Part shown: in pieces, positions 12,132-13,043 of the stretch | Layout: the number at the start of each line of letters is the position of its first letter | Numbering within the stretch: position 1 is the stretch's first letter | Position numbers and translations under genes: made by a program | Notes under the pieces: model-generated | Seen by the model: the letters and a program-made list of their open reading frames with translations, nothing else | The model's database searches: none | What the model was told of the DNA's origin: nothing | From: Escherichia coli | GTDB lineage: Bacteria > Pseudomonadota > Gammaproteobacteria > Enterobacterales > Enterobacteriaceae | Strand: one strand, 5' to 3' | DNA: 64,000 nucleotides | Assembly: GCF_022846255.1 (NCBI RefSeq) | Contig: NZ_AP025682.1

Positions 12132-13043
12132 ATGAAAATTACCGTATTGGGATGCGGTGCCTTAGGGCAATTATGGCTTACAGCACTTTGTAAACAGGGT
12201 CACGACGTTCAGGGCTGGCTGCGCGTACCGCAACCTTATTGTAGTGTGAATCTGGTTGAGACAGATGGTTCGATATTTAACGAATCGCTGACCGCCAACG
12301 ATCCCGATTTTCTCGCCACCAGCGATCTGCTCCTGGTGACGCTGAAAGCATGGCAGGTTTCCGATGCCGTCAAAAGCCTCGCGTCCACACTGCCTGTAAC
12401 CACGCCAATACTGTTAATTCACAACGGCATGGGCACCATCGAAGAGTTGCAAAACATTCAGCAGCCATTACTGATGGGCACCACCACCCATGCAGCTCGC
12501 CGCGACGGCAATGTCATTATTCATGTGGCAAACGGTATCACGCATATTGGTCCGGCACGGCAACAGGACGGCGATTACAGTTATCTGGCGGATATTTTGC
12601 AAACCGTATTGCCTGACGTCGCGTGGCATAACAATATTCGCGCTGAGTTGTGGCGCAAGCTGGCAGTCAACTGTGTGATTAATCCACTGACCGCCATCTG
12701 GAATTGCCCGAATGGTGAATTACGTCATCATCCGCAAGAAATTATGCAGATATGCGAAGAAGTCGCGGCAGTGATCGAACGCGAAGGGCATCATACTTCA
12801 GCAGAAGATTTGCGTGATTACGTGATGCAGGTGATTGATGCCACAGCGGAAAATATCTCGTCGATGTTGCAGGATATCCGCGCGCTGCGCCACACCGAAA
12901 TCGACTATATCAATGGTTTTCTCTTACGCCGCGCCCGCGCGCATGGGATTGCCGTACCGGAAAACACCCGCCTGTTTGAAATGGTAAAAAGAAAGGAGAG
13001 TGAATATGAGCGCATCGGCACTGGTTTGCCTCGCCCCTGGTAG
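12132..13043 (+). CDS. panE: 2-dehydropantoate 2-reductase
   Basis: 303-aa [34 protein letters not shown]... with N-terminal GxGxxG Rossmann motif. Confidence 0.95.

Follow-up and report, generated by a model that had tools for sequence, protein, structure and literature searches.

The window analyzed here is a stretch of 64,000 nucleotides (nt) of Escherichia coli DNA (contig NZ_AP025682.1 of RefSeq assembly GCF_022846255.1). It derives from a strain other than K-12, and its best E. coli matches are 99.7% identical. This study concerns the junction of the neighboring genes panE and yajL, which share part of their DNA, and a second, shorter overlap in the same window. The corresponding features are as follows.

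12132 to 13043, plus strand: panE, encoding 2-dehydropantoate 2-reductase (ketopantoate reductase), 303 codons followed by TAG, identified by its open reading frame (ORF), a Protein Data Bank (PDB) match, and the RefSeq annotation.
13006 to 13596, plus strand: yajL, encoding a member of the DJ-1/PfpI family ("protein deglycase YajL"), 196 codons followed by TAG, identified by a PDB match and the RefSeq annotation.
13006 to 13043, plus strand: dual-coding overlap of 38 nt, comprising PanE residues 292 (in part) to 303 with the stop codon and YajL residues 1 to 12 with 2 nt of Ser13.
19912 to 19934, minus strand: overlap of 23 nt between thiL (19912 to 20889) and pgpA (19416 to 19934), which is also 23 nt long in K-12.

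The panE gene extends from an ATG at 12132 to a TAG at 13041 to 13043, and yajL from an ATG at 13006 to 13008 to a TAG at 13594 to 13596. The common segment measures 3 × 12 + 2 nt, so that the two frames differ and yajL is read one base ahead: codon position 1 of yajL corresponds to position 2 of panE, and position 3 of yajL to position 1 of panE. An earlier note on this DNA, made from the sequence alone, had reported this overlap in different frames, and the ORFs of the window and their translation agree with it to the base. Its statement that the last 12 panE codons are read twice was nearly exact; the panE side consists of 2 nt of the Tyr292 codon, 11 sense codons (293 to 303), and the stop codon, and the yajL side consists of codons 1 to 12 and 2 nt of codon 13. 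The thiL/pgpA overlap that it had mentioned is equally real, and we add that both genes are encoded on the minus strand.

Comparison with the PDB revealed that both overlapping ORFs encode real proteins with homology support. PanE differs from E. coli ketopantoate reductase (PDB 1YJQ/2OFP) by one residue over positions 1 to 303, and YajL differs from PDB 2AB0/5SY4 by one residue over positions 1 to 196, so that each protein is one residue off its K-12/PDB sequence. The ketopantoate reductase matches place PanE in the ApbA/PanE family, and the syntenic counterparts of its gene in other genera carry the domains PF02558 and PF08546. YajL belongs to the YajL subgroup of the DJ-1/PfpI family (PF01965, which is recorded on its homologues), and this assignment extends to the N-terminal strand, for which the overlap codes. 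As the earlier note had stated, K-12 agrees: in the RefSeq annotation of MG1655, yajL (443051 to 443641) and panE (443604 to 444515) overlap by the same 38 nt, and thiL (435634 to 436611) and pgpA (436589 to 437107) overlap by 23 nt. The identical panE/yajL overlap is also annotated in another strain. We conclude that panE-yajL is a genuine same-strand, out-of-frame overlap of two real genes. With this gene order and a length of 3n + 2 nt, it falls into the "phase 1" class, and the length variants of 41 and 32 nt described below are in phase as well.

Several observations were made on the surroundings of the two genes. Between yajL and the convergent gene thiI, the window contains the following element.

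13598 to 13638, no strand assigned: two overlapping inverted repeats, probably a bidirectional terminator that would end the panE-yajL transcript.

The two repeats, GTCAGATGCG/CGCATCTGAC and AACGTCGCATCTG/CAGATGCGACGTT, are perfect and mutually exclusive; they were not called by a consensus terminator scan and probably represent a bidirectional terminator or a REP-like element. On the other side, the divergent yajQ-panE intergenic region contains a perfect 18-nt inverted repeat with a 12-nt loop at 12042 to 12089 (TATCCCTTAATTGTGCAT / ATGCACAATTAAGGGATA). The repeat occurs in E. coli, E. albertii, and E. whittamii but not in the corresponding spacer of other genera of the Enterobacteriaceae. 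It has a single copy, is unannotated, and is at least 99% identical in 5,347 of 5,424 E. coli genomes. A search of positions 11800 to 13800 against Rfam at a permissive threshold gave no match, either to this repeat or elsewhere, and the repeat could be an operator or a hairpin of the 5' untranslated region. Two ORFs antisense to the junction (12910 to 13542 and 12924 to 13430) are program-made only and were discarded for want of supporting evidence. Finally, the rare amber codon TAG terminates panE as well as yajL, and both of these stop codons required special treatment when UAG was removed from E. coli BL21 (Mukai et al. 2015, PMC4434889).

Conservation and length of the overlap

The panE-yajL locus was found in 5,424 of 5,426 complete E. 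coli genomes, and the 60-nt junction is identical in 5,357 of these 5,424. For comparison among species, we compiled a set of 82 sequences from about 78 Enterobacteriaceae species, with YajL identities of 85 to 99%. The overlap is 38 nt long in 69 of these sequences and 41 nt long in 12; the remaining one has a frameshifted panE. No insertions or deletions were present at the junction in any of the 82. Beyond the Enterobacteriaceae, overlaps of 32 nt (Proteus), 38 nt (Providencia and Dickeya), and 41 nt (Yersinia and Xenorhabdus) were observed. The comparison among enterobacteria that the earlier note had proposed thus yields an overlap of 38 or 41 nt in 81 of 82 sequences and of 32 to 41 nt in five further Enterobacterales genera, in addition to its presence across the 5,424 E. 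coli genomes.

One sequence calls for a separate remark. In Trabulsiella odontotermitis strain 01, panE is split (contig positions 1691 to 2535), with residues 1 to 204 and 217 to 303 matching in different frames, which reflects pseudogene formation by a frameshift or else a mistake in the assembly. The yajL junction of this strain is intact, and a second T. odontotermitis strain has an intact panE and a 41-nt overlap.

A first homologue search returned close Enterobacteriaceae only and no outgroups, and the representatives of the 50% identity clusters (P0143, P0145, and P0198) lie on short or nonsyntenic contigs that are uninformative for the junction. An outgroup arrangement was found on a metagenomic contig (Logan SRR20819511, positions 763 to 2585), which shows yajQ-panE-yajL synteny with a 17-nt spacer instead of an overlap and encodes a YajL that is 48% identical to that of the window. 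The panE gene of this contig was called at 406 residues, possibly from a wrong start. This single metagenomic outgroup contig suggests that the overlap is as old as the base of the Enterobacterales or older. At this base composition, 11 random codons are free of stops with a probability of about 0.61; in its length alone, the overlap is thus statistically unremarkable, and its conservation across genera exceeds chance.

The length can be traced to the following element.

13041 to 13046, plus strand: tandem panE-frame stop codons TAG-TGA, located inside the yajL codons Gly12-Ser13-Glu14 (GGT AGT GAA).

Since these three YajL codons read TAG TGA in the panE frame, the overlap is fixed at 38 nt, or at 41 nt if the TAG is lost. 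The latter is the case in 12 sequences, in which a yajL-synonymous change at the wobble position of Gly12 destroys the TAG and panE ends at the TGA one codon later. We enumerated all synonymous codings of the YajL N-terminal peptide and found that a panE-frame stop is possible only at overlap lengths of 11, 38, 41, and 50 nt, of which the 11-nt option requires a switch of the Ser4 codon from TCN to AGY. In Proteus, a replacement of Pro11 by Asn creates a TAA two codons earlier, resulting in 32 nt. Every overlap length observed is of the 3n + 2 type. Judged by this enumeration, the length of the overlap is set by the N-terminal peptide of YajL, and the stop actually used is the first accessible one. 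As to its origin, an intergenic spacer or an older panE stop was presumably lost in an ancestor of the Enterobacterales, and the overlap may have persisted because lengths of 3n + 2 cannot shrink to the favored 4-nt or 1-nt forms.

Variation in the two reading frames and the PanE tail

The part of PanE that is encoded in the overlap is described as follows.

13005 to 13040, plus strand: C-terminal tail of PanE (Tyr292 to Trp303), past the region of the protein that is folded with confidence.

Residue 291 is the last one in the chain of PDB 1KS9, and alignments with other ketopantoate reductases extend no further than about residue 280 to 290. In an AlphaFold model built from 43 sequences, the mean pLDDT is 62 for residues 291 to 300 and 38 for residues 301 to 303. 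The tail thus looks like an appendage. Little or no variation is seen at its residues Tyr292, Glu293, Arg294, Arg301, and Trp303, and its sequence drifts widely between families (for example, YERLSPHLSGSRK).

To describe variation in the shared DNA, we determined per-site entropies. In the overlap, entropy peaks at the wobble position of yajL, which is position 1 of panE (0.63 bits), and the wobble position of panE is the least variable (0.11 bits); where panE does not overlap yajL, variation is greatest at its wobble position (1.04 bits). The wobble position of 4- and 6-fold degenerate yajL codons has an entropy of 0.56 bits in codons 2 to 13 versus 1.27 bits in the remainder of the gene. Codons 2 to 13 of yajL include three invariant codons (Ser2 AGC, Leu6 CTG, and Pro11 CCT) versus none of 87 elsewhere (Mann-Whitney P = 5e-4). 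The two frames can be separated by considering the 26 possible nucleotide changes that are silent in YajL. The number of species in which such a change occurs, a count that is not phylogenetically independent, correlates with the BLOSUM62 score of the resulting PanE substitution (Spearman coefficient of 0.73, P = 2e-5), and the mean score is +0.36 for the changes observed versus −2.17 for those unobserved (P = 1.4e-4). The YajL-silent changes found in nature cause conservative PanE substitutions (I295V/L, G296S, T297S/A, M/L/V at position 299, and P300S), and R294C, G298R/C, R301S/C, and W303R/G are never or almost never seen among 78 sequences.

We used neighboring genes as controls for a reduction of synonymous variation at the 5' end that occurs without an overlap. 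Such a reduction is seen in yajQ (0.59 versus 1.10 bits, P = 0.03); the corresponding values for thiI are 0.65 versus 1.01 bits (P = 0.10), and the start of panE itself shows no drop (P = 0.57). Since yajQ also shows low 5' variation, part of the constraint on the overlap could stem from translation initiation rather than from PanE. Taken together, both products appear to constrain the shared DNA, mainly YajL through its strand beta-1, and PanE as well. The evidence that the PanE tail is translated and weakly selected is good but not conclusive.

Two other readings of these data deserve consideration. According to the first, the tail is a neutral by-product: the last 12 residues of PanE would be functionless read-through, tolerated as a disordered end, and all conservation would come from YajL and from the initiation region. 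The observations that variation follows the yajL frame, that the tail differs so widely between families and is poorly ordered both in PDB 1KS9 and by pLDDT, and that the control yajQ has reduced 5' synonymous variation are all in line with this reading. It is at odds with the distribution of substitutions, since radical PanE changes are never or almost never seen in 78 sequences while conservative ones are common (rho = 0.73). It also accords poorly with codon choice. CCT and CTC are non-preferred codons, and the invariant CCT of Pro11 and the CTC of Leu9 do not enrich the sequence in AT, unlike what would be expected of selection on an initiation region. We consider a neutral tail possible, but doubtful.

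The second reading goes further in the opposite direction. The overlap would be a dual-coding segment with a functionally important PanE tail, whose candidate residues would be Arg294, Arg301, and the invariant terminal Trp303, maintained through the invariant rare CCT codon of yajL, combined with a reciprocal occlusion of panE and yajL during translation. If this were true, a fixed geometry would link an enzyme of coenzyme A precursor synthesis with a damage-control enzyme of the DJ-1 type, and ribosomes would mutually block the end of panE and the ribosome-binding site (RBS) of yajL. We regard this proposal as tentative and rather unlikely.

Start site and translation of yajL

Two elements upstream of the yajL ATG are relevant for its translation.

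12993 to 12998, plus strand: Shine-Dalgarno (SD) sequence AAGGAG of yajL, identical with panE codons Lys288 (AAG) and Glu289 (GAG), 7 nt before the ATG.
13000 to 13002, plus strand: GTG in frame with yajL, two codons upstream of its ATG and 1 nt after the SD sequence; start of a program-made ORF of 198 amino acids.

The SD sequence lies in an A-rich, weakly structured stretch. Of 79 sequences, 73 have AAGGAG and the other 6 AAGGAA; the Lys288 codon is AAG in all 79, and that of Glu289 is GAG in 73. The codons preferred in E. coli for these two amino acids are AAA and GAA, and the retention of the non-preferred AAG and GAG therefore points to selection on the SD sequence itself.

The ATG at 13006 is present in all 82 sequences. 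The codon at 13000 is GTG in 57 of 79 sequences, ATG in 17, and no start codon in 5. Given this variation, the universal ATG at 13006, and the spacing of only 1 nt between the SD sequence and the GTG, the latter is probably not the true start of yajL. Its use would extend the overlap to 44 nt, and yajL would still begin inside panE.

These data lead us to the following account, which we hold with considerable confidence: an ancient, fixed overlap with a peptide-determined length, in which yajL starts from its own SD sequence and is linked at most loosely to panE. (i) The two genes would be carried on one transcript, with yajL starting at the ATG at 13006 inside panE. (ii) This start would be served by the AAGGAG written into the Lys288-Glu289 codons. 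(iii) The panE frame would run on to the first place at which the YajL N-terminal peptide allows a stop. (iv) yajL would most likely be translated by SD-directed initiation at an open RBS. (v) The link to panE would amount at most to the common mRNA and to a brief blocking of the site while ribosomes complete panE. A ribosome footprint covers about 30 nt, and ribosomes on the last ~12 panE codons must therefore briefly cover the RBS of yajL, and conversely. Positive coupling is thus no more plausible than a mild interference in both directions.

The earlier note had read the overlap as implying tight translational coupling. In such a scheme, ribosomes that end panE at 13041 to 13043 would reinitiate 35 nt upstream, or the translation of panE would open the RBS of yajL, and the output of YajL would track that of PanE. 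The two genes share a strand and appear as a single operon in a published list (Shimada et al. 2021), the overlap is conserved across the Enterobacterales, and a low-sensitivity scan detected no sigma-70-like plus-strand promoter inside panE. The scan covered positions 11900 to 13750 and called no plus-strand promoter at all, missing that of panE as well, and is thus uninformative on an internal yajL promoter. Backward reinitiation is compatible with the sequence, and the conserved SD sequence would aid reinitiation as much as fresh initiation. According to a 2025 review, coupling is also possible without an inhibitory structure and may involve ribosome scanning.

Several findings speak against this scheme. 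Termination-reinitiation is efficient only in a window of about −8 to +6 nt, and in native pairs a separation of about 20 nt nearly abolishes coupling, with reinitiation dropping steeply with distance (Huber et al. 2023, PMC10666635); the panE/yajL distance of −38 nt lies outside this window. The same authors describe overlaps caused by stop loss as typically long and "without translational coupling." Nor is there an unusual structure around the yajL start, where the RNA folds more weakly than its shuffled controls. A 120-nt segment folds with −23.8 kcal/mol versus a shuffle mean of −28.3 kcal/mol (z = +1.34), 189 of 200 shuffled sequences reach a fold of equal or greater stability, and a 60-nt segment gives z = +0.16. 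Neither fold, compared with shuffled sequences, thus revealed an inhibitory structure hiding the SD sequence or the start, so that coupling by RNA unfolding would have nothing to unfold. Furthermore, yajL has a strong SD sequence at optimal spacing, kept through synonymous codon choice, and the length of the overlap is already explained by the YajL peptide. A common complex with PanE and YajL as subunits is not known. As far as the sequence permits a judgment, coupling of panE and yajL is possible and is not implied by the overlap, obligatory termination-reinitiation is less likely than SD-directed initiation, and strict tight coupling is unlikely. The claim of the earlier note is thus unsupported, given a panE stop 35 nt past the yajL ATG, an unstructured start region, and a conserved SD sequence, and we deem the scheme as a whole improbable.

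We also considered a programmed +1 frameshift that would produce a PanE-YajL fusion, for which we looked for a shift-prone codon before the stop, as in the prfB-type CUU UGA, together with a well-placed stimulator. By inspection, the sequence CCC UGG UAG UGA is not shift-prone, and re-pairing of Trp-tRNA in the +1 frame is impossible. The longer YajL homologues consist of two DJ-1 matches with no sign of a PanE part.

Long overlaps in prokaryotic annotations are often start-site errors. That the present one is such an artefact, with yajL starting further downstream or PanE ending earlier and no DNA shared, might be thought from the version number of the yajL protein record (NP_414958.4, which suggests past revisions), from the absence of PanE residues 292 to 303 from the 1KS9 chain, and from their low pLDDT, but this view is already largely refuted and highly improbable, because (i) past the upstream stop, the yajL frame offers GTG 13000 and ATG 13006 as its only starts before codon 50 at 13156, so that the downstream start outside panE that would have spoken against the overlap does not emerge; (ii) the alignment with human DJ-1 begins at YajL residue 2 and includes residues 2 to 13, which form the first strand (beta-1), and crystallized YajL constructs begin with MSASALV; (iii) the ATG and the SD sequence of yajL are kept in every species examined; (iv) in none of roughly 85 genomes is the panE frame closed by a stop ahead of 13041 (compare the 32-nt overlap of Proteus); and (v) the PanE tail appears to be under purifying selection at the amino acid level, which needs translation.

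Relation to known overlaps and significance

The overlap is real, ordinary, and already known, and the low novelty that the earlier note assigned to it is borne out: besides its annotation in RefSeq, it has been described in print (Mukai et al. 2015, Sci Rep 5:9699, Fig. 1c, PMC4434889). These authors noted that a simple replacement of the panE TAG alters a yajL serine codon (Ser13), which they solved by adding a Leu codon and TGA. The window contains the same locus as E. coli K-12 and BL21 (NC_000913.3, b0425/b0424), with the same 38 nt and the same consequence of the TAG for Ser13; there is no structural difference, and the window merely represents another strain with one substitution per protein. 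What we add are modest increments, namely, the order-wide conservation, the length imposed by a peptide, the SD sequence within Lys-Glu codons, and the selection in both frames.

Among long overlaps, those of the 3n + 2 "phase 1" type (−8, −11, −14 nt, and so on) are several-fold more common, because they cannot shorten to the favored −4 or −1 nt (Huber et al. 2023, PMC10666635). The overlaps considered here (38, 41, 32, and 23 nt) resemble this class in that they are same-strand and of 3n + 2 length, can be explained by stop loss, and are not expected to permit efficient reinitiation. Unlike typical members, panE/yajL is unusually stable, order-wide, and apparently selected in both frames. 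The thiL/pgpA pair is likewise a same-strand, annotated 3n + 2 overlap within an operon (ribE-nusB-thiL-pgpA) but is shorter (23 versus 38 nt). Pairs of the ATGA or TGATG type (−4 or −1 nt; Huber et al. 2019, 2023), such as sbcD/sbcC (4 nt) and xseB/ispA (1 nt), are also codirectional operon neighbors; in these pairs, however, the stop codon shares bases with the start codon and experiments have demonstrated coupling, whereas panE stops 35 nt beyond the yajL start. The same-strand overlaps in region 392600 to 445500 of K-12 (NC_000913.3) are sbcD/sbcC and ykiA/ykiD (4 nt each), xseB/ispA (1 nt), thiL/pgpA (23 nt), and panE/yajL (38 nt), and both of its long overlaps are of the 3n + 2 type.

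The panE/yajL overlap opens no new biological question, and its value is mostly practical, since any edit of the 3' end of panE, be it recoding, a C-terminal tag, or an in-frame deletion, changes YajL. Plain recoding of the panE TAG to TAA results in YajL S13N. Standard in-frame deletions keep only the last few codons. Edits of panE can thus delete the SD sequence and the start of yajL, and phenotypes attributed to panE may therefore in part be those of yajL. The locus cautions against equating overlap with tight translational coupling, and it provides a clean, well-conserved example of a long 3n + 2 overlap that appears to be locked by the N-terminal sequence of the downstream protein, with selection measurable in both frames.
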